Shown here piece after piece: positions 12,307 through 63,547 of a stretch of 64,000 nucleotides of DNA. Origin of the DNA: an uncultured Terriglobales bacterium (GTDB taxonomy: Bacteria > Acidobacteriota > Terriglobia > Terriglobales > Acidobacteriaceae); the NCBI GenBank assembly GCA_955652395.1, contig CATPBJ010000100.1, positions 497-64,496 on the forward strand, read 5' to 3'. A program made the translations under genes and the position numbers. The number at the start of each line of letters is the position of its first letter. Positions within the stretch are counted from its first letter, which is position 1. The notes below the pieces were generated by a model. That model did not search any database and was not told the origin of the DNA. It saw nothing but the letters and a program-made list of their open reading frames with translations.

Positions 12307-12309
12307 GCT

Positions 12310-13278: not shown

Positions 13279-13362
13279 GTGTCTCTGAAAACCTCAAACT
13301 GCCCTAGCTGCTGAACCCGTCCCTAAAGTGTGATTCGGGCTCAAAAGACTTCAATTCAAGCG

Positions 13363-14658: not shown

Positions 14659-14699
14659 ACGCTTCTAACCTGACACTAGATCAGCCGTTGCCGTTTCAC

Positions 14700-15872: not shown

Positions 15873-15954
15873 CGTATTTCTGGCCCCCTACTGGTCCCTA
15901 TCCAACATTCTACGTGCCTGAACTATAGCTTCCAGATTACGCAGGTCATGCGTT

Positions 15955-44944: not shown

Positions 44945-45943
44945 ATGCCAACACTCGACGTCAAACCCCGCAGCGGAGCGGAACCCGAACTCAATTTGCT
45001 GCTTTCAAAGAGCGTATTGGAAGAACCGCTGTGGAAGTCCTTGTTCCAGAACCTGGACGAATTTTTCTTCCCTAAAAAATTACCCCCTCTGGTCCTAACT
45101 TCGAAGCCGGTCCCGGTCAAGGATATCTGGGGTTTCTACGATTACAAGAAAAACGGCGTCCTCGGAACTACCGCCCTGCATTTGCTCGCGATTGCAGCCA
45201 TAGTCGGCCTTACGCTGCTCGGAAGGCGAATGGTGCAGCCGATTGTGAAGGCGCACGAGGCCATTGCGCTGGTCTCTCCCGACGATATCCCTCCGTTAGA
45301 GCCGTCGAAGACGGTCTCGGGTGGTGGCGGCGGTGGCGGCGATCGTGACAAGTTTCAGGCGCCGAAGGGCAAGTTGCCCAAGCAGTCGATGGAACAGATC
45401 ACACCACCGATGGTGGTGGTGCGGAACGATAATCCCAAGCTCACGGCTGAGCCTACGGTCGTGATTCCGCCACAGGTCAAGCTGGCTTTGAATAACCTGC
45501 CGAATCTGGGCGACCCGATGTCGCATTTGCCCTCCGGACCTCCCTCGAATGGCACCGGTTCGGGCGGTGGCATTGGTTCAGGCTCGGGCGGCGGCGTGGG
45601 CGTGGGCACAGGTCCCGGCGTGGGTGAGGGCCGTGGCGGTGGTGTTGGCGGCGGCGTGTTCCGCGTAGGCGGCGGAGTGAGCGCACCGCGAGTCGTCTAT
45701 CAGCCCGACCCGGAGTATTCGGAGGAAGCCCGCAAAGCGAAGTACCAGGGCACCTGCGTCCTTTGGCTGGTGGTCGGGCCGGATGGCAGACCGCGAGATA
45801 TTCGTGTGGCCCGCAGCCTGGGACTGGGACTGGACGAAAAGGCTATCGAGGCAGTGAAGACCTGGAAGTTTGAGCCGGCCATGAAAGACGGGAAGCCGGT
45901 GGCGGTGCAGATTAACGTGGAAGTCAGCTTCCGGCTGTACTAG
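44945..45943 (+). CDS. tonB: energy transducer TonB
   Basis: 332 aa. One TM is followed by Pro- and Gly-rich spacers and a TonB C-terminal domain (YPEEARKAKYQGTCVLWLVVGPDGRPRDIRV...KTWKFEPAMKDGKPV). Confidence 0.88.
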   Translation: MPTLDVKPRSGAEPELNLLLSKSVLEEPLWKSLFQNLDEFFFPKKLPPLVLTSKPVPVKDIWGFYDYKKNGVLGTTALHLLAIAAIVGLTLLGRRMVQPIVKAHEAIALVSPDDIPPLEPSKTVSGGGGGGGDRDKFQAPKGKLPKQSMEQITPPMVVVRNDNPKLTAEPTVVIPPQVKLALNNLPNLGDPMSHLPSGPPSNGTGSGGGIGSGSGGGVGVGTGPGVGEGRGGGVGGGVFRVGGGVSAPRVVYQPDPEYSEEARKAKYQGTCVLWLVVGPDGRPRDIRVARSLGLGLDEKAIEAVKTWKFEPAMKDGKPVAVQINVEVSFRLY

Positions 45944-45963: not shown

Positions 45964-46118
45964 TGTCACCCTGAGCGAGTCAGGATCGTCCGCGGGCGGA
46001 CGATCCAGGGCCGGCTCGATGAGAAAGCCCAGGAATACACGCACTGATCAATTTAATAGGCGCCCTTCGAGTGTATGGCTGCTTCATGAAGCGAGCGGCC
46101 ACTCCGCTCAGGGTGACA
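45964..46118. repeat. MITE-like element with perfect 14-bp terminal inverted repeats
   Basis: TGTCACCCTGAGCG at 45964-45977 has its exact reverse complement at 46105-46118. There is an internal 10-bp-stem hairpin (GGATCGTCCG-cggg-CGGACGATCC). It lies between convergent tonB and murI. Confidence 0.7.
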
Positions 46119-46946
46119 CTATTCTTTCAGTTCCACGTGCTCTACATCCTCGATCGGACCGCCCAGAAATTGGGCGCCCAGGCGGCGAAATTTTTCCACT
46201 GAATCGGTCACAAAGAATTTCAGGCGAGGCACTCGGCGGCGTTCTGTTTCAGAAGAAGGATTTGGCAGTCCTTGACGGAGTAACTGGCCGACTACGCGGG
46301 CCGTGGAATCGGCAGAATCGACGATGGTGACACGACGTGGCACCAGCCGGTCCAGCAGCGGTTTCAGCAGGGGATAGTGGGTGCAGCCCAGCACCAGGAT
46401 GTCCGCAGCCTCGAAGTCGCCGACGAACGCCTGATCGAGATAGATCCGGGCTACCTGTTCGGTGACCGAGTGTTCCGCCCATCCTTCTTCAACCAACGGC
46501 ACGAATAGGGGGCAAGCCTTCTCTGTGGCCTCAATGCCGTGACCCTGCAAAGCCTTCGCGTAGGCATGGCTGCTCACCGTAGCCTCAGTGCCAATGACCA
46601 CCACGCGGCGAGTCTGGCTGGCCGCGGCGGCGCGAGCAGCGCCGGGCTCCACGACGCCCACCACCGGAACGCTGGAAGCTTGCTCAATCCGGTCGAGAGC
46701 CAGCGCAGTCGCTGTGTTGCAGGCGATGATCAGCATATGGGCGCCGTGTTGCTCGAGATACTGCGCCGCGCCGATAGCGTACTTGGCAACGGTCTCGGCC
46801 GACTTTGCGCCGTACGGAAGCCGCGCCGTGTCCCCGAAGTAGATGTAGTCGGCCTCGGGCGCAAGCGCGACCAGTTCCTTGAGGACAGTCAGCCCGCCAA
46901 AGCCCGAATCGAACACACCGATGCAGGGTCGTCGAGTGGTCGTCAT
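46119..46946 (-). CDS. murI: glutamate racemase
   Basis: 275 aa from the ATG at 46946. Motifs are IGVFDSGFGGLTV, ACNTA and GCTHYP. Confidence 0.92.
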   Translation of the reverse strand: MTTTRRPCIGVFDSGFGGLTVLKELVALAPEADYIYFGDTARLPYGAKSAETVAKYAIGAAQYLEQHGAHMLIIACNTATALALDRIEQASSVPVVGVVEPGAARAAAASQTRRVVVIGTEATVSSHAYAKALQGHGIEATEKACPLFVPLVEEGWAEHSVTEQVARIYLDQAFVGDFEAADILVLGCTHYPLLKPLLDRLVPRRVTIVDSADSTARVVGQLLRQGLPNPSSETERRRVPRLKFFVTDSVEKFRRLGAQFLGGPIEDVEHVELKE

Positions 46947-47053
46947 GATGGAGTCATGGAACGAAGGAACATCATAACGGCGCATTGCGGTTTTGCGCCG
47001 ACAATCCGCCGCAGCCTGCGAAATCCCAATGGTTTCGCCGGACAACACCGGGC

Positions 47054-48280
47054 CTACGTGTAGCGCGATGCCTGCATCTGCTGTTGTGTCCGCGACGGCA
47101 GATTACGCTCACAGCAAGGTCCGAGCGGGATGGGCGCACCGTGGGGACAAGTGCGGGGATGACCGAGGAAGCTGCAAATCTTGTCGGTAGCTTCGGGCGA
47201 GAGAATGTGCTCGAATTTGCAGGCCTGCTGCTCGATCTCTGATTCGCTGTCGAGAGCCAGGCTGTCGGTGAAAAGCCGCTCGGCCAGGCGATGGCGGCGG
47301 ATGATGTCGGCGGCGCGCAAGCGGCCGCGCGGGGTGAATTCCACGATCATGCTGCCGTCGCCTGTGGACACTCCGGAAGGCTTGAGCGCATCGTGGCACG
47401 GGTTCACGAACGGCTTGTGATTGTGGACTTCCGGCGGATGCGGTCGGGTGGTGAGCAGACCCAGAGCAGTCATCTTCTCGACCGCGATACTTACCGGCAG
47501 AGCGCCATGAACTTCCATGCGCTCGATTTCGGCAATCTCTCCGTGCTCCTCGACCGCCCAGAGTTCTTCGAGGACTTCGTCGAACTGCTCCTCGTCAGCC
47601 ATAGCGAAGACTTCCTGATCGGCAATCTTGCCGTGATGCAATTCAATGCGGCGATCCGCCAGGCGGGCGACGACCGGGTCGTGGGTGACCATCACGATGG
47701 TGCGTCCCTGGCGGTGCAGCTCGCGCAGCAGGCGTAGGACAATCTCTTCGTTGACCGCGTCCAGATTCCCGGTGGGCTCATCGGCCAGAACAATTTTGGG
47801 GTCATTGATCAGGGCGCGAGCGATGCAAACCCGTTGCTGCTCCCCGCCGGAGAGATGGGCCGGTAGATGCCAAGCACGGTCTTTCAATCCGACGTGGGCC
47901 AGCGCCGCGAGTGCTTCCGGCTCGTCGGTCATGCTGTGAAAGTATTGCGCCAGCATGACGTTTTCGAGCGCGGTGAGGTAGGGAATCAGGTGGAATTGCT
48001 GAAAGATAAAGCCGACTTTTTCCGCCCTGGCGCGGTTCAAGTCCTGCGTGGAAATCCTGGCGACGTCTTCGCCGTCGAGCCAGATTTCACCTGAAGCGGG
48101 ACGATCGAGGCATCCAATCAGGTTGACCAGGGTGGACTTCCCGGAACCGGAGGGGCCCATAACGGCCAGCCACTCGCCGGGTGCAACCTCGAGAGAAACG
48201 TCGTCCAGGGCACGAATGATACCGGCATTGGTCTCGGCCTGGGCCGGATAAAGGCGGGTGACATGGCTGAGCTTGATCAT
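47054..48280 (-). CDS. ABC transporter ATP-binding protein (MacB/LolD-like) fused to a DtxR/MntR-family metal-dependent regulator module
   Basis: 408 aa. The N-terminal 225 aa carry Walker A GPSGSGKST, signature LSGGEQQR, Walker B ILADEPTGNLD and H-loop VTHD. The C-terminal 180 aa carry a wHTH-like EVLEELWAVEEHGE...MTALGLL, then IRRHRLAERLFTD...ACKFEHILSPE...GHPRTCPHGAPIP (the DtxR metal-binding/dimerisation signature). Confidence 0.85.
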   Translation of the reverse strand: MIKLSHVTRLYPAQAETNAGIIRALDDVSLEVAPGEWLAVMGPSGSGKSTLVNLIGCLDRPASGEIWLDGEDVARISTQDLNRARAEKVGFIFQQFHLIPYLTALENVMLAQYFHSMTDEPEALAALAHVGLKDRAWHLPAHLSGGEQQRVCIARALINDPKIVLADEPTGNLDAVNEEIVLRLLRELHRQGRTIVMVTHDPVVARLADRRIELHHGKIADQEVFAMADEEQFDEVLEELWAVEEHGEIAEIERMEVHGALPVSIAVEKMTALGLLTTRPHPPEVHNHKPFVNPCHDALKPSGVSTGDGSMIVEFTPRGRLRAADIIRRHRLAERLFTDSLALDSESEIEQQACKFEHILSPEATDKICSFLGHPRTCPHGAPIPLGPCCERNLPSRTQQQMQASRYT

Positions 48281-48281
48281 G

Positions 48282-49430
48282 TCATTCTCCCCTCAGGATG
48301 TTAGCAGGTTGAACCCGCCGGAGCAGCGATATTGGCACAATCGCGGCGATGAGGGCGATAACTATCCCGCCTACCAGAACCACCGGCAGGACGCCGACGC
48401 GCGGACTGACTGGGGCGTGAAAATTCACGCGACCGATCCAGATGGCGACTCCAACTCCGATGGCAAAGCCCAAGGTCGAGCCAATCGCGCCCAGGGCTGC
48501 GGCTTCGGCGGCGAAGAACCCTTGCAGCATCTTGCCGGAAGCTCCCAAGGCCTTCATGAGGGCAAAGTCGCGACGTCGATCCGAGACCCATCCCATTAGG
48601 GTGGAGAGCACACAAACCGCGGCGGTGAAAATGATGAGAATGGCAGCGACGAGGAGTGTGGTCCGCATTTTACCCAACACGTTAGCCTCGCCCTCCGTGA
48701 CCTGCCGCACGGGGTGGACGTCGGCTGCGGGAAGGGCGCGTCCAAGGCGCTGGACGGTGGCGATCACCTCTTCCGGCGCGCCCGAGGCTGATATCTCAAC
48801 CGTCGAATACGGTAAATGGGTCCAGTCGGTGAAATCGCCGAGCGATACATAGACACGACTATCTTCGGCGGCTCCAGTCTTTAGTACGCCGACTGGATTC
48901 AGCCGAACCGTGCGACCCTGAAAGCTTAGGTCGAACGGCCTGCCCGGCGGGCCGATAACACTGACGGCGCGAGTGCCAATGAGTGCATCGTGGAACGCTT
49001 TCGGCCAACGAGTCACTGACCACCAGGTGCGGTCCAGCTTCTGCACCCGATCGAGATCCGTTCCGGCGACGACCACCGAACGCCCATCGGGGGTGCGAGC
49101 CACGGCATACGCGAAGGGAACAGCGATGCCGCTGCCTAACACCGATCCGATTGTCTCCAGAGTATCGGCCGGCAGGCTCTGTCCGTCCTTAACGACTACC
49201 ACGACGTTGGCGCCATACTTGCGAAATTCGCGACGCAGCTTGGCCTGGACGTCCAAGGAGAGGTTCAGCATCGCTGTGGCCACGGCAGCAGCCACCACCA
49301 TCGCCAGCAGGGCCGAGGCGGCGCGGCCACGCCGCAGGACGGCGGCACGCACCAGCATGCGCAGGAACATCGAGGTGTGGGGCGCAGCCGAGCGGCGCCG
49401 GGCGACGTGGCTGGTGTCAACCGAGTTCAC
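48282..49430 (-). CDS. ABC transporter permease, FtsX/MacB-like
   Basis: 382 aa. TM1 is followed by a large periplasmic domain and three C-terminal TMs (FtsX fold). The GTG start overlaps the upstream stop (GTGA); the alternative is Met21 at 49370. Confidence 0.85.
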   Translation of the reverse strand: MNSVDTSHVARRRSAAPHTSMFLRMLVRAAVLRRGRAASALLAMVVAAAVATAMLNLSLDVQAKLRREFRKYGANVVVVVKDGQSLPADTLETIGSVLGSGIAVPFAYAVARTPDGRSVVVAGTDLDRVQKLDRTWWSVTRWPKAFHDALIGTRAVSVIGPPGRPFDLSFQGRTVRLNPVGVLKTGAAEDSRVYVSLGDFTDWTHLPYSTVEISASGAPEEVIATVQRLGRALPAADVHPVRQVTEGEANVLGKMRTTLLVAAILIIFTAAVCVLSTLMGWVSDRRRDFALMKALGASGKMLQGFFAAEAAALGAIGSTLGFAIGVGVAIWIGRVNFHAPVSPRVGVLPVVLVGGIVIALIAAIVPISLLRRVQPANILRGE

Positions 49431-50683
49431 ACATCACCTCGCAGCGCGTACACCGGATCAAATTTTACCGCCCGCCGGATCGCAGCGGCACTGCCGGCAA
49501 ACGTCACCAGCACGGCGATGGTCAGAATGACGGGCAAGAGCACAGGCTGGACGGCAATCTGCGAGTCGAAGATGGAATGTCCGATCTGGCGAGCCAGGAG
49601 CGCGCCTCCGCCGAAGCCTACCGCTCCGGCCAGCAAGGCCAGCAGCGTACCCTCGGCAAAAAACAATGCGGCCACCGCCAGATTGCCGGCGCCCAGAGCT
49701 TTCATCAACCCAACTTCGCTGCGCCGTTCAATAACCGCCGTCGCCATGGAAGCTGAAACTGCCAGCGCGGAGGCCAGCAATGCCGCGAGCGTAATCAGGA
49801 GCATGAGTCCCTGAATGCGGGAGAGTACGGTGCCCTCGTTCTGCGCCACCTGACGAATCTGCTCGGCGTGCGAGTGCGGGATGGCCTCTTGCAACTGAAA
49901 TGCGATGGACTGCGCATAAGGAGAGCAGTACCAGCGGTCGTACATCGCAGGGGATAGGCTTTTCGGATCGCGGCGGGCAAAAGCATCCTCGGGCTTGGTC
50001 ACGGCGCTGACATAGATGCGGCGTACGGCACCGGGCTTGCCGAGCATCTGCTGCGCCAGGGCAAGCGGAGCAACGATCTGATCATCTTCGGCTCCACCGG
50101 TCGAGAGAATCCCTGAAATCCGGCGCGACCTGCCCGCGATCTCAATTTCCTGGCCAGGCGACTTGTTGAGCCTTGCCGCCAGATGATCGCCGAGGAGAAC
50201 GTCCTCCGAGTGATCGTCGGGCCAGGTACCCTGCACTTTCCACCAGGGATGCGTGGTACGAACGCCGGTGACGAAATCCTGCTGTCCGAATACCACACGC
50301 CGGGAGAAGTATGTTCCAAGCAGAGTCAGTTTCTTTTCATCGCCCAGTGTGACGCTAACCGGCAACATGGGAGAGAAGCCTACGATGTTGTTGCGCCAGA
50401 ACATGCCTTTGATCTTCGGCAGATCCGCTTCGTTCAGGTACGCGCCGTCGCTGGGTGGCTTCAGATTCACGCCGCCAATCTCGACGTCCAGCGTGTCTTC
50501 CTGGGGAGTGACAATCAGGTTGGCGCCGTAGGTACGCAACTCGCGGCTGATCTTGTCGCCGATATCTGTGGCGACGGCGATCATGGCGGTGGCCACGCCC
50601 ACGCCCAGCATGATGGCGACCCCGGCCAGCAGCTTGCGCCGCTTCTGCCGCCGGAAGGACTCATAAAGTAGGCGCAAGAACAT
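49427..50683 (-). CDS. ABC transporter permease, FtsX/MacB-like
   Basis: 418 aa with the same architecture (MFLRLLYESFRRQKRRKLLAG..., periplasmic domain, C-terminal FtsX TMs). Confidence 0.85.
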   Translation of the reverse strand: MFLRLLYESFRRQKRRKLLAGVAIMLGVGVATAMIAVATDIGDKISRELRTYGANLIVTPQEDTLDVEIGGVNLKPPSDGAYLNEADLPKIKGMFWRNNIVGFSPMLPVSVTLGDEKKLTLLGTYFSRRVVFGQQDFVTGVRTTHPWWKVQGTWPDDHSEDVLLGDHLAARLNKSPGQEIEIAGRSRRISGILSTGGAEDDQIVAPLALAQQMLGKPGAVRRIYVSAVTKPEDAFARRDPKSLSPAMYDRWYCSPYAQSIAFQLQEAIPHSHAEQIRQVAQNEGTVLSRIQGLMLLITLAALLASALAVSASMATAVIERRSEVGLMKALGAGNLAVAALFFAEGTLLALLAGAVGFGGGALLARQIGHSIFDSQIAVQPVLLPVILTIAVLVTFAGSAAAIRRAVKFDPVYALRGDV

Positions 50684-50687
50684 GGGT

Positions 50688-51935
50688 TTATGGTTGGAAA
50701 ATGTGGGTGCCCGCCGCGATGTCGGCCTCCCGAATGATGACCGCGTCGGCGGTCTGTTCAGCGCGCAGCGGAATCGGGTTGCAGCCGCCCGTCATGCCCA
50801 CTGATTGCCCGTTGATCGGCGCGGCACAGTTCTTACAAACCACGCCGTTCGGCCCTTTGTAAAAGCCTACAGGTCCGCAAATCTGGCAAGCGTCAAATAC
50901 CGTGGCAACTTTGCCGTCGGTCTTCTTGTAGAGCCAGAAGCGAACCCCAACCCCATTTTCTCTGGCCTCGAAGCGATGAAGATCGCCATCAGCGACCTGA
51001 GCCAACGGAATACTCACCTGCCCATTCTGGAAGGTCACTTCGGTCGCGGGCGATAGCGCGCTTACGCTCTTGGCGTAGATGAATTCTGCGGTCACCATCA
51101 GGATGAACAAGAACGAACTGGCATAGACCGAAACCATCCACAGACGTTCGCGGCGGGCACTCCACAGAGCCTTGCGGCGCTCGGCCGGAGAATCGGGAAG
51201 GGCAGCGGGCTGCCGGCGCTTGACCTCAAACAACACCATCAGCGCGGCCAGAGCCACGATCGTGACGAAAAAGAACAAGTCGTTGCGTACGATGGGGCCG
51301 ATCAGGGCCATCTCCTCGCGCGAGGAGGGAAGCACGCCGTTTTCAGAAAGCTCGTGCAGGCCGGAGATGATTAACTGCGCCGCCACAAAGAACAGAATGG
51401 CGGTCGTGACCCGGAAGAATTTCTGCAGATTGATGCGCACGCTGCCCTTGACGAACATCACGCCAAAGACGATGGCCACGATGACGCCCGACAAGGTGCC
51501 GAGGAAGCTGAGCAGCGCCGTGGAGTTCAGCGATACCGCTCCCAGGATGAGGACGGTTTCCACACCCTCGCGCAGAACCATCAGAAAGACGAATAGAAAG
51601 AGACCAAATCTGGCATTGCGCCCGGCCAGGAGGCTCACTTTGCCTTCAATCTGTCCCTTGAGCGCGCGTCCCGTCTTCATCATGAAAACAATCATGGTGA
51701 CGACGAAGAAGGCGGCCATCAGCATGATCCAGCCTTCGAAGATGTCCTGATTCCATTGCGTCCGCGAAAGCAGGATGGCGATCCCGATGCTGCCGACAAA
51801 TGCGGCAACCAGGGCGGTGAAAACGGATTTGCGCAGTTCAGGCCGCTCAATCTTGGTCAGATAGGCCAGGGTGATGCCAACGATGAGCGCGGCTTCGACC
51901 CCCTCGCGCAAAGTTATGATGAATGCTTGCAACAT
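50688..51935 (-). CDS. FTR1/EfeU-type iron permease fused to a DUF2318-like Cys-rich domain
   Basis: 415 aa from the ATG at 51935. It has two REGVE motifs (TLREGVEAALIVG, VLREGVETVLILG) in a 6-7 TM N-terminal part. The C-terminal roughly 130 aa carry CQICG...CKNCAAP...GGCNPIP. The ORF-track start at 51971 is only a TTG inside the upstream palindrome. Confidence 0.8.
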   Translation of the reverse strand: MLQAFIITLREGVEAALIVGITLAYLTKIERPELRKSVFTALVAAFVGSIGIAILLSRTQWNQDIFEGWIMLMAAFFVVTMIVFMMKTGRALKGQIEGKVSLLAGRNARFGLFLFVFLMVLREGVETVLILGAVSLNSTALLSFLGTLSGVIVAIVFGVMFVKGSVRINLQKFFRVTTAILFFVAAQLIISGLHELSENGVLPSSREEMALIGPIVRNDLFFFVTIVALAALMVLFEVKRRQPAALPDSPAERRKALWSARRERLWMVSVYASSFLFILMVTAEFIYAKSVSALSPATEVTFQNGQVSIPLAQVADGDLHRFEARENGVGVRFWLYKKTDGKVATVFDACQICGPVGFYKGPNGVVCKNCAAPINGQSVGMTGGCNPIPLRAEQTADAVIIREADIAAGTHIFQP

Positions 51936-51953
51936 TTTGTGGAAAATCCCGTT

Positions 51954-51972
51954 ATTGCAACTGAGTTGCAAT
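51954..51972. promoter_or_regulatory. 19-bp perfect palindrome, candidate metalloregulator operator
   Basis: ATTGCAAC-TGA-GTTGCAAT has 8-bp perfect arms. It lies 19-37 nt upstream of the FTR1 ATG and downstream of the candidate -10 box. Confidence 0.45.
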
Positions 51973-51997
51973 TACTAGCTTTGGCATCGCTTCTGTA

Positions 51998-52027
51998 AGA
52001 ATAGTCTCCCCCTAGTGCAGGCGTCAA
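51998..52027 (-). promoter_or_regulatory. candidate sigma-70 promoter of the FTR1-ABC operon
   Basis: On the minus strand it reads TTGACG-18 nt-TATTCT. Confidence 0.35.
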
Positions 52028-52059
52028 CGGACGAACCTTTGGGAGTTGGGTTTCGCACC

Positions 52060-52170
52060 AGTGCGTTTGCGTCCTTTGCGGTCTTCGTTGGCGCACTTTG
52101 CGGTTAAAGGGTTTGATCTTGCTCTATAGCAAGCAAGATCTTTTGCCGCAAAGGGCGCAAAGGGCGCGAA
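52060..52170. repeat. REP-like palindromic element rich in CTTTGCGG / GCAAAGGGCGC units
   Basis: GCGCACTTTGCGGTTAAAGGGTTTGATCTTGC (52091-52122) pairs with GCAAGATCTTTTGCCGCAAAGGGCGC (52132-52157). Additional CTTTGCGG and GCAAAGGGCGC copies flank the pair. Confidence 0.65.
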
Positions 52171-52217
52171 GAAAAACCGGACGAACGAATTCAATCATTG
52201 CCGCCTGAAGACCAGCG

Positions 52218-52904
52218 CTACAGCTGCTTCAAAAATTGCTTTACTTCTTCCAGTTGCGGGAACAGTTTTTCTTCGGCCTGAAATTCCGCGGAGTGAACGC
52301 ACCTGCGGCTGCCTCGCAACCTTACCGGATACTTCAGATGCAGCATCTCGTGATACACGATGTACTCGACTGCAAAGCGGGGAACCCGGGGGTGGTCAAA
52401 GATTCGACTGACGACGATGGCATTGTGCGCAGGATCGTAATGGCCAAGGCTATTGCGGGTACAGTCGCGGCTCCAGGTCATTTGCGGGCGAGCCAGCAGG
52501 CCATGAAAAAACCTTAGGTTGAGATCCTCAAAAACGACTTTCAGGTCATAACTGTGGCCTTGGGCCGAATGGAGACGCTTGCGTCCGCGCATTTGGCGCA
52601 CCAGGTGAGCCTTCCGGCTGATGTTGCGGCTGGAAACGTAACGGTGGTAGCGGCTTGCGGCGTCGCGGTCAACCGGCTTGCGGTACATCTTGGCTACAAG
52701 GATGTGGGCGATGGCTTGCAAGACGGGTTCGGGGGCGCCTTCCAGCAGGTCTGAGAGCCGCACCAGCAGCCTGCCTTCGCGCATCCGGATGGTGTTCTTG
52801 ATGCTGGTGAAAGCAAAGAATTCAACCCTCAGCTCGGGGATGTCTGCATTGGGGCGGATCTCGCGGCAGGTTTCCTGGAAGATGTGGAGAAGGCTATGCC
52901 TCAC
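52218..52904 (-). CDS. YgjP/DUF45-like zinc metallohydrolase (HExxH)
   Basis: 228 aa with C-terminal YHEMLHLKYP...VHSAEFQAEEKLFP, matching the DUF45 pattern HExxH...HS..F...P. Confidence 0.65.
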   Translation of the reverse strand: MRHSLLHIFQETCREIRPNADIPELRVEFFAFTSIKNTIRMREGRLLVRLSDLLEGAPEPVLQAIAHILVAKMYRKPVDRDAASRYHRYVSSRNISRKAHLVRQMRGRKRLHSAQGHSYDLKVVFEDLNLRFFHGLLARPQMTWSRDCTRNSLGHYDPAHNAIVVSRIFDHPRVPRFAVEYIVYHEMLHLKYPVRLRGSRRCVHSAEFQAEEKLFPQLEEVKQFLKQL

Positions 52905-52983: not shown

Positions 52984-53529
52984 CTAAGGTTTTGCCGGCT
53001 TCTCCGACTTCTTATGCTTGAAAGCTTCTTCCTGTTCGCTCAAGAGCTGGCGGTGGTCCTGCACACTGCTATCCAAGGTATCGAGCGCGTTTGAAAGCAG
53101 GAACTGGTATTGTTCCGTCTCTTCCTTCTTGGCGGTGGCGTCGTCTCGCAGGGCCCGCAGCTTGGCCTGAAACTCGGTGTCGTCCTCAATGACCGTTTTC
53201 AGCACCTTGCGCAAGTCTGATTTGCGACCGACGTAGGTATCGATGTTGTCGTTCAATTCGTCATAAACGTCTAGGAAATCCTGCAGGCCATCGTGGGTCG
53301 CCAAACCGCGGTTAGCCGTCTTGGGATCGGACCGCGCCTGCTCGAGGGCCGCCAGCCGGGCGCGCGCAAACGTGACATACAGTTTGAGGCGGAGATCCGG
53401 ATCCATCGCGGTATCCCGCAACTGATCGATTTCCGGGGCGGTGAGCGGATCGCGTTTTTGCCCGGCCGCCGCCGGTGAAAGCAGGAGTAAAAGAGCGCAC
53501 CATGCGAAACTGACGCGAAGACAGGTCAT
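52984..53529 (-). CDS. secreted helical hypothetical protein
   Basis: 181 aa with a signal peptide (ALLLLLSPAAAGQ) and a charged helical body. Its start overlaps the upstream stop by 4 nt. Confidence 0.6.
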   Translation of the reverse strand: MTCLRVSFAWCALLLLLSPAAAGQKRDPLTAPEIDQLRDTAMDPDLRLKLYVTFARARLAALEQARSDPKTANRGLATHDGLQDFLDVYDELNDNIDTYVGRKSDLRKVLKTVIEDDTEFQAKLRALRDDATAKKEETEQYQFLLSNALDTLDSSVQDHRQLLSEQEEAFKHKKSEKPAKP

Positions 53530-54002
53530 TTACTTCTCTTTTTTCCAAACATGGCCGAGAGCAGGTCGGTCCGCATCTTTTCCAGTTCATCGACCGTCTG
53601 CTGAATCGGGGCCTGATCGTCAAAGGCAAGGGTACGTTTGATATCGCGAAACTTCTCCGCCATCTTGCGCAGTGTAATTTCGGTGTTCTTTAATTTCTTT
53701 CCAGTATTAATCGAGCCATCCGTGGCCTTCTTGGAAAAGGTCACCACATCCTGCAGGGCAGCGTTGCCTGCTTCTGTGTTGCCTTCTTTGTATAGCGTGT
53801 CGGCTGTTTCTGCCTTCTGCCGGGCGATCTCGAGATAGAGGGCCGGGCGATCCTCCGGGCGGGCCGATTCGGCTCGGGCAATGAGCTGATTAAGGGTCTC
53901 GTCTTTGGCTGCGAATGCGGGTGGTGCGACCGCAGCCAGTGCGAATGCGGCCAGGAAAGCCGCGACCAGGAGCATGAGAATCGATACCCGAATGCGCATC
54001 AT
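53526..54002 (-). CDS. secreted helical hypothetical protein
   Basis: 158 aa with a signal peptide (LLVAAFLAAFALAAVAPPAFA) and a charged helical body. It starts 3 nt after the TPR gene. Confidence 0.6.
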   Translation of the reverse strand: MMRIRVSILMLLVAAFLAAFALAAVAPPAFAAKDETLNQLIARAESARPEDRPALYLEIARQKAETADTLYKEGNTEAGNAALQDVVTFSKKATDGSINTGKKLKNTEITLRKMAEKFRDIKRTLAFDDQAPIQQTVDELEKMRTDLLSAMFGKKRSK

Positions 54003-58648: not shown

Positions 58649-58885
58649 CTACTTCCTGACCTGTTCTTCGTCCCGCCTCTTGCCGTAGCGGAATGCGAAA
58701 CCTGCGCCCAGGGTCATGAACGCAACTGGAGGAAGCAGCAATACCAGCACGCCTCGGCTGATTGCGTTCTGGCCTTCTTTGCTGGTGCCCTTGGCATTGC
58801 TGTAGCACATGGCACAGCCCTGACTGAAGGCGGGCGCTGCCCACAACAGCAGAAATACCGCGAGCGTGCAAAGACGCAGCTTCAT
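58649..58885 (-). CDS. small membrane-anchored CxxC protein coupled to the cytochrome oxidase operon
   Basis: 78 aa. A signal peptide (cleavage after AFS) is followed by a short periplasmic QGCAMCYSNAKG..., one C-terminal TM and a basic tail. Its ATG overlaps the subunit IV stop (ATGA). Confidence 0.6.
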   Translation of the reverse strand: MKLRLCTLAVFLLLWAAPAFSQGCAMCYSNAKGTSKEGQNAISRGVLVLLLPPVAFMTLGAGFAFRYGKRRDEEQVRK

Positions 58886-59226
58886 TTCACTCCTACTCCC
58901 AGGTGCAGAATTCGAAATGCGTCAGGCAGAAAGACCAGCATCATGGCCAGGCAAAAGACCAGCGAACTCATGGTAACCCACTTCATGGCGGAGATCTCAA
59001 ACTTCAGGTGCATGAAGTAGCCGATGATGAGCCCGGCTTTTATGAGTGACAGCCCCATCAGAATCGACAACATCCGGACCGGTTCCATGTTCTGATAAGC
59101 CAGGTAAACCTCAATGCCGGTCATCAGCAGCAAAGCGGCCCAGACCCACAGGAATTGTCCCTTGGAATGATGCCGTTGTTCTTCGGCCGATCGCTGTTCC
59201 AACGCTAACTGGGTGGCGTCCATCAT
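58882..59226 (-). CDS. cytochrome c oxidase subunit IV (bacterial CoxD/CtaF type)
   Basis: 114 aa with three TMs. The GYFMHLKFE motif is typical of prokaryotic COX4. Confidence 0.8.
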   Translation of the reverse strand: MMDATQLALEQRSAEEQRHHSKGQFLWVWAALLLMTGIEVYLAYQNMEPVRMLSILMGLSLIKAGLIIGYFMHLKFEISAMKWVTMSSLVFCLAMMLVFLPDAFRILHLGVGVK

Positions 59227-59255
59227 TTGACGTAGAGCTCCTCAAAGTTTGTCGG

Positions 59256-60050
59256 CTACACAATCCTTGTCGACATCAGGTACACCAGCGGGAAAATGAA
59301 CATCCACACCAGATCTACGAAATGCCAGTAGAGACCGGCGACTTCAACATCCGAGGAATCGTATACCTTGGGCTTCAACCACAGAATGAGGGAGATCACC
59401 ACCGCCGCCACCAACAGTACGTCAGCGCCGTAGTGGAACGGACTGTAGCTGGGGGTGCCCAACCATGCCACCAGCCACAATCCCAGCAAAACCGGAATGA
59501 ACCATTTTCGCAAGGCAATCACCCCCAGGTAGACCACACCCAGGGTAACGTGCACCATGTGCATTCCAGTCAAGCCAAAGAAGGTGGCGGCAAATTGCGG
59601 CACACTTTTGGTGACATTCACAAACTCCGCACTGCCAGCCCCCCCGGGAGGAGTGGGGAAGACCGGCAAGGACAATCCTTCCGCGATGAGATTGGTCCAC
59701 TCGCGACCGTGAAGCACGACGAATCCCAGGCCGCACGCCATGGTGGCGAACAGCCATAGGCGCTGCGCTTTGGCGTTTCCCATCACCGCCGAGCGCACGG
59801 CAAACACCATGGTCAACGAACTGGTAAGCAGAAAAGCAGTCATGAGCGTCGCGTTCCGGATGCTCTCGGAATGAAACGGCGTAGGCCAGTTCGGCGTGGA
59901 GACGCGGCCGTAGGTATAGGCGTACAGCAGGGCACCGAACGTCAGCGAGTCGGAGAGCAGGAACAGCCACATCCCGATTTTCTTGGAATAGGTGCCAAAC
60001 AGGGAAGGCTCGTAAACGCCTGGCACTTGCTGCACCGCCAAATCAGACAT
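59256..60050 (-). CDS. cytochrome c oxidase subunit III
   Basis: 264 aa and multi-TM, with C-terminal YWHFVDLVWMFIFPLVYL typical of subunit III. Confidence 0.85.
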   Translation of the reverse strand: MSDLAVQQVPGVYEPSLFGTYSKKIGMWLFLLSDSLTFGALLYAYTYGRVSTPNWPTPFHSESIRNATLMTAFLLTSSLTMVFAVRSAVMGNAKAQRLWLFATMACGLGFVVLHGREWTNLIAEGLSLPVFPTPPGGAGSAEFVNVTKSVPQFAATFFGLTGMHMVHVTLGVVYLGVIALRKWFIPVLLGLWLVAWLGTPSYSPFHYGADVLLVAAVVISLILWLKPKVYDSSDVEVAGLYWHFVDLVWMFIFPLVYLMSTRIV

Positions 60051-60105
60051 GGGTTAATCTCCCGGGTCTTAATCGGTTCAAAATCTGTGCCTCGTCAAAT
60101 CGTGT

Positions 60106-60867
60106 CTAGCGCACAAATTCCAAAAGGGCAAAGATGTAAAGCCAAACCAAAGCCATGAAGTGCCAGTACCAGGCGGTCACGTCGACCACGATACGGCGAT
60201 CTTCCACCGGCTGGTGACGTAACGCAGTGCCCCCCGCATAGAGCAATACCAGCAAACCTCCCGCCAGGTGAATGGCGTGCGCCGCGGTGAGCACATAAAC
60301 CATGGAACTGCTGGGACTGGTTGCGAGGTAGAATCCACGATTCCCGAGCTCACGCCAAGCCATCCACTGTCCAGCCAGGAAGGACAGACCCAGCGCGACG
60401 GTGGTACCGAGCCAGGGGAAATTTCGTTCCTTCCCGATAGAAACTCCCGGTATGGATCGAACTGGGGCCAAAGCCGCCTGGCGAGTGATCTGCCGGCGCG
60501 CTAGCTCCACCGTAACGCTGCTGAGCAGCAGCAGGAAAGTGTTCACCAGGAGCAAGTTGGTCGGCAGATTGACCTGCAGCCAGTCGCGGACATAGCCGCC
60601 GGTGCGCTCGTCCAACGTGGGCAGCCCCCTGCGCATGATGTACACGCTGGTGAACGAAACAAACAGCATGGTGCTGGCGACCAGGCCGACGATCAGCCCC
60701 AGACGGGTACGACGCAAGCGCTCGCCAGGGTCGGAGGACCCATTACCGCCGCGATCACCACCACCACCGCCCGGGACAGGGGGACGCGTGCCGCCGCTGC
60801 CGCGGCCGGTCTTGGGATCCTTGACACCCGGATCCGTGATCGTGACTGTGGAACTGAGGGTTGCCAT
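60106..60867 (-). CDS. cytochrome c oxidase subunit III family protein (second copy, Gly-rich N-terminal extension)
   Basis: 253 aa with C-terminal WYWHFMALVWLYIFALL. The N-terminal roughly 60 aa are Gly/Pro-rich. Confidence 0.8.
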   Translation of the reverse strand: MATLSSTVTITDPGVKDPKTGRGSGGTRPPVPGGGGGDRGGNGSSDPGERLRRTRLGLIVGLVASTMLFVSFTSVYIMRRGLPTLDERTGGYVRDWLQVNLPTNLLLVNTFLLLLSSVTVELARRQITRQAALAPVRSIPGVSIGKERNFPWLGTTVALGLSFLAGQWMAWRELGNRGFYLATSPSSSMVYVLTAAHAIHLAGGLLVLLYAGGTALRHQPVEDRRIVVDVTAWYWHFMALVWLYIFALLEFVR

Positions 60868-60876
60868 GTGCCTTTT

Positions 60877-60970
60877 GTAGCGCCGCCGTCCCGGCGGCTG
60901 TCGCGTGGGCGTCTCGCCTGCGCTGGTGGGCAGGGATGCCTCCCGACAGCCGGCAGGATGCTGGCGCTAT
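60877..60970. repeat. GC-rich palindromic intercistronic element
   Basis: GTAGCGCCGCCGTCCCGGCGGCTGTCG (60877-60903) is an imperfect reverse complement of CGACAGCCGGCAGGATGCTGGCGCTAT (60944-60970). The element abuts the ctaD stop. Confidence 0.65.
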
Positions 60971-60971
60971 C

Positions 60972-62741
60972 TCAATGTGACGTCACCGTCGCCGGATCGT
61001 TCTGCATTACATAATCCTTCGGCGCTCCCGTAACGCTGTACTCATACGGTCCGTGATAGACCACTGGAGTGCGCCCGCCAAAGTTGTCATGCGGAGGCGG
61101 CGTCGCCGTAGTCCATTCCAGCGTGGTCGCTTCCCAAGGATTGTCGCTCGCCTTCGGCCCCTTGAACATGCTCCAGAAGAGATTGATCACAAAGATGAAC
61201 TGGGCGGCAATGGTCACGAATGCGGCATAGGTCATGAATCGGTTCAGCGGAATGAGGTGCTGCAGATAGGCAAGCTCGGTGAACTGGGAATAGCGCCGAG
61301 GCTGTCCCGCCATGCCCAGATAATGCATGGGCATGAAGATGGCATAGGTTCCCGCCAGCGTAAGGAAGAAGTGCACCCGACCCCACTTCTCGTTCATCAT
61401 GCGGCCAAACATTTTGGGGAACCAGTAATACGTTGCGGCAAACATGCCGAAGATCGCCGCCACGCCCATGATCAGATGGAAGTGTCCAACTACGAACGCG
61501 GTGTCGTGCAGAGGAATATCGAGCACCGGCTGAGCCAGGAACGGGCCGCTCAGCCCGCCGGACACGAACAGGGAAACAAACCCGATGGCGTAGAGCATTG
61601 GAGTCTGAAAACGTACCCGCCCCCCGCGAATTGTCCCCAGCCAGTTAAAGGTCTTGATCGCCGAGGGTACGCCAATGGCCATGGTCATGATGGAAAAGGC
61701 AAACGCCGAGTACGGACTCATACCGCTCATAAACATGTGATGGCCCCAGACCATGAATCCGAGAAAGCCAATGCCCATGAGGGCGTAAACCATCGCCTTG
61801 TATCCGAAGATCGGCTTGCGGGAGAACGTGGAGAGCAACTGTGAAGCCACACCCATGCCCGGCAGGATCGCAATGTACACCTCAGGATGTCCGAAAAACC
61901 AGAATAGGTGTTGCCAGAGCAGCGGCGAGCCGCCCTTGTGTCCCATGATCTGGCCATTCACTACCACCAGCGGAACGTAGAAGCTGGTGCCAAGATTGCG
62001 ATCGAGGAGCAACAGAATTCCTGCCGAAAGCAGAACGCCAAAGGCCAGCAGACCCAGGATGGCAGTGATGAACCAGGCCCAGACAGTCAGCGGCATTCGC
62101 ATCATGGTCATGCCCTTGGCGCGCAGATCCAGCACGGTCGTGATGAAGTTCAGAGCGCCCATCAGCGACGCGACACAGAATATCGCAATGCTGGTGATCC
62201 ACAAATCCGCGCCCAGCTGCTCGCCGGGGCCGGCGCTCTGCAACGCGCTGAGCGGCGCATAGCCTGTCCAGCCGTGCAGCGGAGCGCCGCCGGTCACGAA
62301 GAAGGCAGCGAGAATCACCATGAACGCGATGAACGTGGTCCAGAACGAAAGCATGTTCAAGACTGGAAACGCCATGTCCGGCGCGCCAATCTGGATGGGC
62401 AGAAAGTAATTCCCGAATCCGCCCTGGGGCGCCGTGGTCAGCACGAAAAACACCATGATGGTGCCGTGCATGGTCAGCAGGCTGAGGTAGGTTTCCGGCT
62501 TGATTTCGCCAATCAGCGGCAGATTCGCGGTCGGCCAAATCATGTGGATACGCATCAGCAGCGAAAGGAACATGCCGACAAACACTGCCGCGAGCGCCAG
62601 AAAGTAATATTGGAGCCCGATGACTTTGTGATCCAGACTGAAGATGTACTTACGAATGAAGCTGGTCGGGGCCGCGTGAGCGTGGATTGCGTGTGCGTGC
62701 GGGTCGTTTCCGTGCGGGTCGTGAGCGTCCTGGGCAACCAT
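60972..62741 (-). CDS. ctaD: cytochrome c oxidase subunit I
   Basis: 589 aa from the ATG at 62741, which overlaps the subunit II stop as TAATG. Heme-copper motifs are WFFGHPEVYI, GHHMF and HFHLIM. Confidence 0.95.
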   Translation of the reverse strand: MVAQDAHDPHGNDPHAHAIHAHAAPTSFIRKYIFSLDHKVIGLQYYFLALAAVFVGMFLSLLMRIHMIWPTANLPLIGEIKPETYLSLLTMHGTIMVFFVLTTAPQGGFGNYFLPIQIGAPDMAFPVLNMLSFWTTFIAFMVILAAFFVTGGAPLHGWTGYAPLSALQSAGPGEQLGADLWITSIAIFCVASLMGALNFITTVLDLRAKGMTMMRMPLTVWAWFITAILGLLAFGVLLSAGILLLLDRNLGTSFYVPLVVVNGQIMGHKGGSPLLWQHLFWFFGHPEVYIAILPGMGVASQLLSTFSRKPIFGYKAMVYALMGIGFLGFMVWGHHMFMSGMSPYSAFAFSIMTMAIGVPSAIKTFNWLGTIRGGRVRFQTPMLYAIGFVSLFVSGGLSGPFLAQPVLDIPLHDTAFVVGHFHLIMGVAAIFGMFAATYYWFPKMFGRMMNEKWGRVHFFLTLAGTYAIFMPMHYLGMAGQPRRYSQFTELAYLQHLIPLNRFMTYAAFVTIAAQFIFVINLFWSMFKGPKASDNPWEATTLEWTTATPPPHDNFGGRTPVVYHGPYEYSVTGAPKDYVMQNDPATVTSH

Positions 62742-63547
62742 TATTGTTTCTCCGCCTCTCGAGCTGCCAGCCATTTGTCAAAATCTTCCTGGCTGACGAC
62801 CTTCAGCATGCCGTGCATTTTGTAATGGCCGAGACCGCAAAGCTCGGCGCAGGCAATTTCGTAGTCCCCGACTTCGGTGGGAGTGAAGTGCATGCGGATC
62901 TCCAGACCGGGGACGGCGTCCTGCTTAAAGCGCATGTTCGGAACAAAGAAGCTGTGGATCACATCCACGGCGCGCAGCCTGAGGTCCACCTGCCGATTCA
63001 CGGGCAGATACATGGTACCCGTGACCACGTCGTCTTTCGCCGCCGGATCGGACGTATCGAGACCGACCGCAGCTTCGTTGCCAGCGGAGGGATCCATCAA
63101 CTTAGGACTGGTGGCGCCAAACTTGCCGTCTGCACCGGGGTAGCGGAAGTACCAGGCAAACTGCATGCCCGTCACTTCTACCGGAACAGACCCGGATTCC
63201 GCCGGCGCAAAGCGCTCGCGAGCCCAAACATTGCTGCCCATGAGGTTCAGTCCGACAAAAAGAACGGCGGTGAGCACCGTCCACACCACTTCCAGCTTGA
63301 CGTTGCCGTGGGAGTACTCGACCTTCTTCGCGTCCGCCCGGTCGCGGTACTGCCACACGAATAGTCCCAGGGCGCCCTGCGCCGCTACAAACACGACTCC
63401 CATCAGCACATAAGTCAGGGCGAACTGATTGTCGATAAAAGCGGCTGCAGTGGAGGCGCCGTGAGGCAACCACCAGGTTTTGGCCACGAAGAAGTAGGTG
63501 CTAAAGAAGGTGATCAGCCAGATAATCGCGAGCAGAGCGAGGCCCAT
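62741..63547 (-). CDS. coxB: cytochrome c oxidase subunit II (no fused cytochrome c domain)
   Basis: 268 aa. Two N-terminal TMs are followed by a CuA site (HSFFVP ... CAELCGLGHYKMHG). There is no CxxCH motif. Confidence 0.92.
   Translation of the reverse strand: MGLALLAIIWLITFFSTYFFVAKTWWLPHGASTAAAFIDNQFALTYVLMGVVFVAAQGALGLFVWQYRDRADAKKVEYSHGNVKLEVVWTVLTAVLFVGLNLMGSNVWARERFAPAESGSVPVEVTGMQFAWYFRYPGADGKFGATSPKLMDPSAGNEAAVGLDTSDPAAKDDVVTGTMYLPVNRQVDLRLRAVDVIHSFFVPNMRFKQDAVPGLEIRMHFTPTEVGDYEIACAELCGLGHYKMHGMLKVVSQEDFDKWLAAREAEKQ

Follow-up and report, generated by a model that had tools for sequence, protein, structure and literature searches.

The stretch of DNA described here, a 64-kb window from an uncultured Terriglobales bacterium (Acidobacteriota; contig CATPBJ010000100.1), carries on its minus strand a compact operon of four genes related to the FetMP-FetABCDEF system of Campylobacter jejuni (Cj1658-Cj1665; ftr1-p19 and the genes downstream). 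The genes, here called A, B, C, and D in order, fill positions 47054-51935 of the window, whose numbering is used throughout. They are tightly packed: A and B are separated by 4 nucleotides, B and C overlap by 4 nucleotides, and C and D are separated by a single nucleotide. A preliminary description, made from the sequence, had proposed such a tightly coupled unit, headed by an Ftr1-type permease that is joined to a Cys-rich, DUF2318-like domain. Hidden Markov model (HMM) searches uphold the identities it gave to all four genes (FTR1, DUF2318, FtsX, and ATP-binding cassette [ABC]). What it overlooked is a DtxR-like module fused to the ATPase. Automatic database labels for the operon proteins read 'high-affinity iron transporter', 'Fe-S-containing protein', and 'ATP-binding cassette domain-containing protein'. 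The genes and their predicted domains are as follows.

50688-51971, minus strand: open reading frame of gene A; from the ATG at 51935 the gene occupies 50688-51935 (415 residues)
51201-51935, minus strand: A residues 1-245, FTR1-type permease with seven transmembrane helices (Pfam, hhalign, AlphaFold2)
51060-51200, minus strand: A residues 246-292, basic linker (AERRK) and transmembrane helix 8 (a long helix, residues 250-290, in the AlphaFold2 model)
50688-51059, minus strand: A residues 293-415 and stop codon, FtrD-like/DUF2318 domain (Pfam PF10080, AlphaFold2, Foldseek)
49427-50683, minus strand: gene B, FetB-like type VII (MacB/FtsX-type) ABC permease with a periplasmic core domain (Pfam)
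48282-49430, minus strand: gene C, FetC-like second FtsX-type permease (Pfam)
47054-48280, minus strand: gene D, ABC ATPase of 408 residues (Pfam ABC_tran)
47597-48280, minus strand: D residues 1-228, FetD-like ABC nucleotide-binding domain (ABC_tran, E 9e-36)
47054-47596, minus strand: D residues 229-408 and stop codon, DtxR/IdeR-like module (a divergent N-terminal part, then Fe_dep_repr_C)

Genes of the operon

The ATG at 51935 was taken as the start of gene A because it yields a protein of 415 residues, the length of essentially all 120 closest homologues. The N-terminal part of this protein matches Pfam FTR1 (PF03239; residues 1-200, E 7e-38, 131 bits against a cut-off of 25.3) and contains the two REGVE motifs pointed out in the preliminary description: R10-E14 in transmembrane helix 1 (TM1), and R122-E126 in TM4. 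With the NCBIfam EfeU equivalog model (NF041756), A scores 153.9 bits against a cut-off of 255; a relative of EfeU, then, but not its orthologue. The C-terminal part is indeed DUF2318-like, matching the Pfam family FtrD-like (PF10080, formerly DUF2318) over residues 314-413 (E 6.9e-28, 97.2 bits against a cut-off of 26.3). Its Cys pattern, CQIC-x13-CKNC-x14-C, agrees with the DUF2318 motif of C. jejuni Cj1660/FetA, CxxC-x13-CxxC-x14/15-C (PMC6083913). The protein ends with this domain, and a YHS domain is absent.

An exhaustive search of 1.84 billion cluster representatives with A gave 4,579 matches, including 255 at E<=1e-30 and about 58 full-length proteins. This search supplied a set of 58 full-length A-type representatives (25-50% identity). 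Pfam finds FtrD-like in all 58, FTR1 in 53, and YHS in 4, and about 10 have a Cys-rich tail. The five Cys residues of the DUF2318 domain are invariant across the set. Both REGxE motifs are kept in 52 of the 58, down to about 30% identity, and both are lost in the six most distant proteins.

By sequence search, A has no relative of solved structure in the PDB. AlphaFold2, run on the 58-sequence alignment, gave a full-length model with a pLDDT (predicted local distance difference test) of 90.4 and a pTM (predicted template modelling score) of 0.83: seven helices span residues 2-240 (pLDDT about 85-96 for the permease helices), followed by TM8. By the positive-inside rule, the AERRK linker would be cytoplasmic, and TM8 would return the C-terminus to the periplasm.

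Modelled alone, the C-terminal domain reaches a pLDDT of 96. In a Foldseek search of the PDB, its top 50 matches are all Rieske domains from Rieske oxygenases (probability 0.69-1.0, at least 0.9 for 45 of them); the full-length model returns the same matches, more weakly. The DUF2318 domain is accordingly termed Rieske-like: a confidently modelled β fold with four predicted Cys ligands. The ligand pattern, however, is CxxC...CxxC, with no conserved His, against CxH...CxxH in Rieske domains. Given these Cys-for-His positions, and a domain that follows a Sec-type transmembrane helix and is not a Tat substrate, a mononuclear Fe/Zn(Cys)4 site or a set of redox-active CxxC pairs seems at least as likely as a 2Fe-2S cluster.

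The next two genes encode permeases. B matches both MacB_PCD (E 7e-14) and FtsX (E 7e-15), and shares 35-48% identity with its counterpart, the first permease, in canonical fet loci and in other phyla (36-44% for canonical loci). C matches FtsX (E 2e-16), and its MacB_PCD score of 22.6 bits is under the 27-bit cut-off. The nucleotide-binding domain of D is 53-66% identical to canonical FetD, has the MacB, LolD, and FtsE ATPases as its closest NCBIfam models, and displays the expected sequence elements: Walker A, Q-loop, the signature LSGGEQQR, Walker B, and H-loop. Together, B, C, and D appear to form a type VII (MacB/FtsX-type) ABC system, to which B would contribute both domains, C an FtsX domain, and D a MacB/LolD/FtsE-like ATPase.

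In the longest-open-reading-frame reading, murI begins 5 nucleotides after D and was considered as a fifth operon gene. It was rejected: its homologues align only from about residue 35, and insertions lie between D and murI at other loci.

Probable ancestry of gene A and the absence of P19 nearby

The canonical relatives were collected with the six REGxE-less, most distant full-length representatives as queries. The resulting 80 loci span Bacillota, Gilliamella/Orbaceae, Treponema, Coriobacteriales, and others. Scanning genomes with one distant protein on its own, P0371, confirmed no locus. Gene order in these canonical loci is FetM (an FTR1 match about 2 kb upstream), P19, FetA, FetB, FetC, and FetD. 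In the Gilliamella locus, for example, Pfam recognizes FTR1, Iron_transport (P19, PF10634; E 1e-66), a 406-residue FetA with a match to FtrD-like only, two MacB_PCD plus FtsX permeases, and a 219-residue ATPase lacking the DtxR part.

The FetA of these loci bears directly on the origin of A. Profile comparison by hhalign matches the membrane part of REGxE-type A proteins to that of canonical FetA with 99.6% probability (E 5.9e-25) over 264 columns, a match that extends beyond the FTR1 core to take in the cytoplasmic AERRK linker. The match of the A membrane part to canonical FetM is stronger (99.9%, E 7.8e-36), and the canonical FetA and FetM profiles match each other weakly (89.8%, E 1.7e-6), with the REGxE positions of FetM falling on non-conserved positions of FetA. 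With phmmer, A aligns over its full length with the motif-less representatives (E 1e-43 to 1e-47). In canonical FetA, the seven-helix membrane part is thus probably an FTR1 fold in a degenerate state: both REGxE motifs are gone, and precisely in the branch with FetM and P19 as neighbours.

C. jejuni FetA has been described as an eight-helix membrane protein with DUF2318 and YHS domains (PMC10783030). The supposition in the preliminary description that DUF2318 is normally a separate membrane protein, and that A therefore represents a fusion, does not survive this comparison: the canonical protein already combines eight transmembrane helices with DUF2318, and its FTR1 part is degenerate. The simplest reading of the sequences is that FetA-type proteins overall are Ftr1 paralogues carrying TM8 and DUF2318. 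For the same reason, A is best read not as a recent fusion of FetM and FetA genes but as a FetA-lineage protein that kept its channel motifs and, presumably, a live permease. In the literature searched, we found no statement on the FTR1-like nature of the FetA membrane part.

The other canonical components were sought around A. A P19 HMM, built from 66 P19 proteins of canonical loci, scored its positive controls at 1e-77 to 1e-97. It found no match at E<=10 in six-frame translations of the window and of 86 acidobacterial loci, and none at E<=1 in 80 further loci, including those from other phyla. Within the window, Pfam scans covered plausible genes of at least about 130 residues and found no EfeO, EfeB, or thioredoxin among them. 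Nor did they find a free cupredoxin; the sole cupredoxin-fold protein is COX2 of a cytochrome oxidase operon. A separate FetM is also lacking, as the single FTR1 match at each locus lies inside A, and no gene for a thioredoxin or an FMN-binding protein ends the cluster, where murI follows D. The parts list is thus that of the C. jejuni fetMP-fetABCDEF (ftr1-p19-cj1660-65) cluster, without P19, EfeO, or thioredoxin in the window, much as the preliminary description had it, and the operon can fairly be called a streamlined, P19-less variant of the canonical machine. Some 170 related acidobacterial and other-phylum loci (90 sources in the first P19 search and 80 in the second) entered the neighbourhood comparisons, inspected over 8-10 kb to either side. 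None showed P19, EfeO/EfeB, a thioredoxin, or a free cupredoxin; the condition under which the preliminary description would have been refuted, a P19/EfeO gene next to the operon in relatives, thus did not arise.

Two places where a partner might hide were examined. At some Terriglobales loci, insertions of 3-7 kb separate a SprT-like gene from A; these hold transposases and unrelated genes, and are negative with the P19 HMM. Two small secreted proteins encoded upstream (158 and 181 residues) were considered as P19 substitutes. They belong to no Pfam family and look helical by composition, against the β-rich P19; as they form part of the upstream string of TPR and SprT-like genes, the idea was rejected as unsupported.

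A rival reading is that of a rearranged canonical locus. P19/FetP, a second FetM, and thioredoxins would then be encoded elsewhere and act in trans, and A would serve as FetA only, its REGxE motifs a leftover. The extent of DNA inspected (64 kb of this genome, and less around the relatives) leaves room for such a case, and the presence of several FTR1-family genes in acidobacterial genomes has been reported (PMC7661733). We nevertheless think it very unlikely. The REGxE motifs are under clear purifying selection and are lost only beside FetM and P19; no P19 lies near any of the approximately 170 REGxE-type loci, from six or more phyla; and Liu et al., surveying 33 species, found the first six cluster genes kept together in all of them (PMC6083913).

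The sensor-like module, the operators, and a proposed mechanism

At 408 residues, D is much longer than a plain nucleotide-binding domain of about 220 residues. Its extension contains the Pfam domain Fe_dep_repr_C (PF02742; residues 316-385, nucleotides 47126-47335, E 1e-25, 89.9 bits against a cut-off of 27), and a PDB sequence search with residues 227-408 returns IdeR and DtxR (E 2e-15 to 1e-10), aligned from the wing, across a RHRLAERL helix, to an AC(K/R)(F/W)EH motif. Of the ligands at metal sites 1 and 2 of DtxR, H79, E83, C102, E105, and H106 correspond to H330, E334, C354, E357, and H358 of D, respectively; M10 and H98 are replaced by Glu, as E235 and E350. Each of these seven residues is kept in 123-131 of 133 distinct fused ATPases. 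Further conserved residues of the module are Cys 369, 389, and 390 and His 380; the window sequence also has Cys378. The roughly 85 residues ahead of Fe_dep_repr_C stand in the position of the DtxR winged helix, but Pfam finds no match to the winged helix-turn-helix family PF01325, at E<=5, either in the module or in its standalone relative from Nitrospirota.

Fusion of the module to the ATPase, in one reading frame, was called at 138 loci, all acidobacterial; three more were scored as having a separate DtxR part, an artefact of alignments that slightly overrun the stop codon. The DtxR-like part is absent from D of 63 canonical loci and of the five other-phylum loci with a complete D. Among the loci examined, the fusion is seen in Acidobacteriota alone, and it is arguably the most unusual feature of the operon.

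The closest standalone relative of the module that was found is a 235-residue DtxR-like protein fused to FeoA, which aligns with module residues 3-162. It is encoded in a Nitrospirota metagenome-assembled genome (JAWOJY010000021.1; locus L163, 4222-12744), where the genes run: feoB; the DtxR-like/FeoA gene; an outer-membrane channel (Phenol_MetA_deg); A (FTR1, FtrD-like, and YHS); B; C; and D. By its gene content, this looks like one composite iron-uptake island that joins Feo to a P19-less Fet-like system. Because the homologous module is here a separate gene directly upstream of A-B-C-D, the arrangement suggests that a Feo-associated DtxR-like sensor, encoded beside the operon, was captured by the ATPase in Acidobacteriota.

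Transcription of the operon would also respond to metal. Two sites lie upstream of A.

51998-52027, minus strand: σ70-type promoter TTGACG, 18-nucleotide spacer, TATTCT; the only promoter-like site found in 46000-52300
51955-51971, no strand assigned: candidate operator TTGCAA-N5-TTGCAA (TTGCAACTGAGTTGCAA), a 6-5-6 palindrome between the predicted transcription start and the ATG

The promoter arrangement, TTGACG...TAT(C/T)CT, is kept in orthologous loci. The palindrome TTGCAACTGAGTTGCAA is the sole match to the 6-5-6 box in the window, where about 0.18 matches would be expected by chance. An RNA hairpin was weighed as an alternative, but the two TTGCAA hexamers are conserved and the loop-closing pair is often broken, which favours a DNA operator. 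Its sequence is identical to the consensus box, tTGCaa-N5-ttGCAA, of Nur, the Fur-family nickel regulator of Streptomyces (PMC2691836). Across 174 distinct regions upstream of A-type genes, such a Nur-type box (at most one mismatch) occurs in 36, and a Fur-box-like sequence, GAAATTGAAATTCATTTTC (at most three mismatches), stands right behind the −10 hexamer in 99; the 39 regions with neither box belong mostly to other phyla or to canonical FetA genes. GAAATTGAAATTCATTTTC matches 14 of the 19 positions of the classical Escherichia coli Fur box consensus and has the same hexamer architecture. The operator type thus appears to have been swapped within one order: Nur-type here, and a Fur-box-like 19-mer at the equivalent place in sister Terriglobales clades. 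Both types occur alongside the same ATPase-DtxR fusion, so they probably serve free Fur-family regulators rather than the fused module. No fur-family gene is among the Pfam-scanned genes of the window.

These observations bear on what the module does. It might be a membrane-tethered transcription factor that, when metal-loaded, binds its own or other operators and represses. The module spans the whole two-domain region of DtxR, as does the standalone Nitrospirota homologue that aligns with it; its ligand positions are conserved; and the PDB search gave a weak, non-significant alignment of ERMEVHGALPVSIAVEKMTALGLLTT to the recognition-helix segment of IdeR. Even so, tethered repression appears unlikely to us. 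Besides the failure of Pfam to recognize a winged helix-turn-helix, about 30 residues are inserted in the wing region, and the conserved upstream sites are of the Fur/Nur type rather than the DtxR/IdeR type, both classes accompanying the same fusion. Moreover, the fusion of the closest standalone relative to FeoA, beside feoB, suggests a protein-regulatory role.

The Nur-type box also raises the question of which metal is handled. The operon could conceivably serve another metal (Ni, Zn, Mn, Pb, or Cd), or metal efflux and detoxification, through a Cys-rich soft-metal site and a MacB-type extruder. The Cys4 site, and the YHS domain of some relatives, are typical of soft-metal binding, and the box in this clade equals one that responds to nickel. 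MacB-type ABC systems are usually exporters or extractors, and the FTR1/ILT superfamily includes a lead-uptake member, PbrT. We doubt this explanation, however. REGxE motifs are the hallmark of the iron-transporting Ftr1, EfeU, and FetM proteins, and a ligand set that retains the equivalent of Cys102 is of the Fe-sensing type. Sister clades have the Fur-box-like operator at the same position, and the Nitrospirota version clusters with feoB. In C. jejuni, orthologous fetA, fetB, fetC, and fetD are each required for growth under iron limitation (PMC10783030).

We therefore favour iron, and propose that the four genes form a single metal-regulated operon, a minimal, P19-less form of FetMP-FetABCDEF for inner-membrane iron uptake. 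As a whole, this mechanism seems to us reasonably probable. The substrate would most likely be Fe2+/Fe3+ handled in the periplasm. A would be a working Ftr1-type channel, with TM8 setting the Cys4 Rieske-fold domain in the periplasm directly above it. This domain would capture or redox-process periplasmic iron and hand the metal to the REGxE channel. A would in this way perform in cis the task that falls to P19/FetP and FetA, acting in trans, in Campylobacter.

B, C, and two copies of D would form a type VII (MacB-like) machine, which probably carries no metal itself. Hydrolysis of ATP in the cytoplasm would move the periplasmic domains of B and C, and thereby load or reset the Cys-rich domain. 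Such mechanotransmission is established for MacB, LolCDE, and FtsEX.

Control would be exerted at two levels. At transcription, a metal-loaded Fur-family repressor would occupy the Nur-type box in the 5' leader. At the protein level, the DtxR-like module on each ATPase subunit would bind cytoplasmic Fe2+ (or Mn2+), dimerize or re-orient, and stop the ATPase, an allosteric trans-inhibition analogous to that by the C-terminal domains of MetN, ModC, and MalK.

Several points weigh against this proposal. The architecture of a MacB-type ABC system does not by itself settle the direction of work, given the usual exporters and extractors of this type. Genes for P19, EfeO, or thioredoxins may lie in another part of the genome. 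The Foldseek matches to Rieske domains are only moderate (TMq 0.36-0.58, E 0.015-0.1), and the Rieske His ligands are replaced by Cys in A. An 'Fe-S' label for the DUF2318 domain is doubtful, because a periplasmic domain behind a Sec-inserted helix cannot easily take a preformed Fe-S cluster; candidates for the cofactor are Fe, Zn, or a disulfide pair. With no Pfam match to a winged helix in its N-terminal part, the DtxR-like module could be either a DNA binder or a purely allosteric sensor. The metal sensed or transported could differ in this clade, since the Nur-type box is linked to nickel in Streptomyces. Finally, the REGxE-type branch is known from sequence alone.

A more far-reaching version of the proposal is possible, and we offer it tentatively. 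In it, the DtxR-type sensor on the type VII ATPase switches the pump off at high cytoplasmic Fe2+, which would constitute a new class of trans-inhibition domain, and FetA-type proteins are ancestral, self-sufficient Ftr1 permeases, to which FetM and P19 were later add-ons that let FetA decay to a pseudo-permease. If so, the Rieske-like Cys4 domain would be the original periplasmic iron-handling partner of the ancestral FetA-type permeases, and the sensor-gated ATPase would be the first regulatory logic proposed for the FetBCD motor.

Distribution and relation to known systems

A look-up of the exact sequence of A found no entry, and the close homologues P0001 and P0008 stood in for it. Close homologues of A all come from metagenome-assembled genomes of Terriglobales/Terriglobia (Acidobacteriota). 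A genome scan confirmed at least 533 stretches encoding relatives of A, the best 80 of which are 78-94% identical. Far from being rare, the A-B-C-D arrangement is what Terriglobales normally have, present in more than 530 species-level genomes. Complete Terriglobales chromosomes with the operon include OY970291.1, OY969776.1, and OY970281.1. The best 80 Terriglobales loci also keep the surrounding order: uvrA, a TPR gene, two genes for small secreted proteins, a SprT-like gene, A-B-C-D, murI, tonB (on the opposite strand), and ileS.

Outside Acidobacteriota, relatives without P19 are found in at least five phyla. The arrangement A-B-C-D with a REGxE-type A, which in these phyla often carries YHS, was found in Nitrospirota, Omnitrophota, Deferrimicrobium and a 'delta proteobacterium', Myxococcales, and Planctomycetota. 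An incomplete TA06 contig (L172) holds A and the start of B only. In the Candidatus Deferrimicrobium metagenome-assembled genome, a second and more distant cluster (L165, 14922-17219) lies about 2.4 kb downstream of A-B-C-D, and consists of a DUF2318-like domain (27% identity to the C-terminal part of A), a MacB-type permease, and an ATPase (40% identity).

Several neighbours merit separate mention. The two small secreted proteins (181 and 158 residues; 52984-54002, minus strand) have signal peptides, look helix-rich by composition, match no Pfam family, and lie upstream of the operon, between the TPR protein and the SprT-like gene, in nearly all Terriglobales loci. About 1 kb past the last operon gene, a TonB_C protein with a long Gly/Pro-rich linker (44945-45943, plus strand) is kept in most related loci. 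It may bear on outer-membrane iron uptake; no TonB-dependent receptor was seen nearby.

Farther away, the window contains a Tad/Flp-type pilus or type II secretion-like string (11404-17427, minus strand: two T2SSF, a T2SSE ATPase, a ParA/CpaE-like AAA protein, and a secretin), with DUF192 downstream (10977-11369). The cytochrome c oxidase operon (58882-63547, minus strand) encodes COX2, COX1, two COX3-like proteins, and COX4_pro; its COX2 is unrelated to the Fet-like operon. Four large open reading frames of 405-650 residues have a gene-like GC content at third codon positions (0.69-0.71) and no Pfam family at E<=1e-4: 7360-8991 (plus), 9028-10980 (minus), 19390-20859 (minus), and 36858-38075 (plus). 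Between 22100 and 25200, the reading frames have no Pfam matches and a low GC content at third positions (0.40-0.56; elsewhere about 0.7); this stretch may be of foreign origin, non-coding, or mis-called.

What FetA and FetBCD do in the P19 systems of Campylobacter, Yersinia, and E. coli is poorly understood, though each gene is needed under iron limitation. Because one protein here combines the channel with DUF2318, and neither P19 nor a thioredoxin accompanies it, the acidobacterial operon isolates the question of how DUF2318 and the MacB-like motor serve an Ftr1 channel. As a minimal system found in nature, it lends itself to the dissection of FetA and FetBCD, and it may also present a new type of regulatory domain for ABC proteins. 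Three ideas are opened: that canonical FetA is a decayed Ftr1 paralogue; that DUF2318 places a Rieske-like Cys4 site, for metal or redox chemistry, on the channel; and that the ATPase is gated by a DtxR-type domain. Moreover, the operon occurs in hundreds of species of an order that ranks among the most abundant bacteria in soil, which makes it a likely major route of iron acquisition there. Searches of the literature for the FTR1-DUF2318 architecture, the ATPase-DtxR fusion, and acidobacterial FTR1 returned two Campylobacter papers and generic mentions. In that literature we found no description of a REGxE-type FetA branch, a P19-less FetABCD operon, an FTR1 ancestry of FetA, a Rieske-like fold of DUF2318, or an ATPase-DtxR fusion.

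The nearest known system is C. jejuni FetMP-FetABCDEF, with the FetMP systems of Yersinia and E. coli in the same family. The C-terminal half of A is like FetA in its TM8, its DUF2318 Cys motif, and its AERRK linker; the gene order, A followed by two FtsX/MacB_PCD permeases and an ABC ATPase, is shared; and a Fur-family operator, a candidate one in the window, lies ahead of the operon in both. The acidobacterial operon differs in lacking FetM, P19/FetP, the thioredoxins (FetE/F), and the FMN-binding protein. Its A protein has no YHS domain and retains an intact REGxE permease, whereas the membrane domain of canonical FetA is degenerate, and the DtxR-like ATPase module is found only in the acidobacterial operon when the 63 canonical loci are compared.

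With the Ftr1, EfeU, FetM, and FtrC permeases (including those of EfeUOB and FtrABCD), A has in common the seven-helix core with REGxE in TM1 and TM4. In contrast to these systems, no ferroxidase, cupredoxin, P19, or peroxidase partner was found at the window locus, and A has an additional transmembrane helix and a predicted periplasmic, Rieske-like Cys4 domain in cis. That domain, as modelled, appears to share the overall β-sandwich fold of the Rieske [2Fe-2S] domains of oxygenase α subunits, with two metal-binding knuckles 13-17 residues apart. It has CxxC...CxxC, however, and resembles them only moderately; it is predicted to be periplasmic and not exported by Tat, and its cofactor may not be 2Fe-2S.

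The module of D shares the Fe_dep_repr_C domain with DtxR, IdeR, MntR, and the DtxR-like-FeoA proteins. DtxR-type regulators are free, soluble DNA-binding dimers, whereas this module is covalently fused to an ABC nucleotide-binding domain, lacks the third (SH3/FeoA) domain, and has an N-terminal part that contains an insertion and is not recognized by Pfam as a winged helix-turn-helix. In its position, the module is instead like the C2 domain of MetN and the corresponding parts of ModC and MalK: a ligand-binding, dimerizing domain at the C-terminus of the nucleotide-binding domain, placed so that the ATPase dimer could be held apart when the cytoplasmic product is abundant. Those proteins belong to type I importers; in D, by analogy, similar regulation would be exerted by a DtxR/IdeR-type module on a type VII, MacB-like ABC system.

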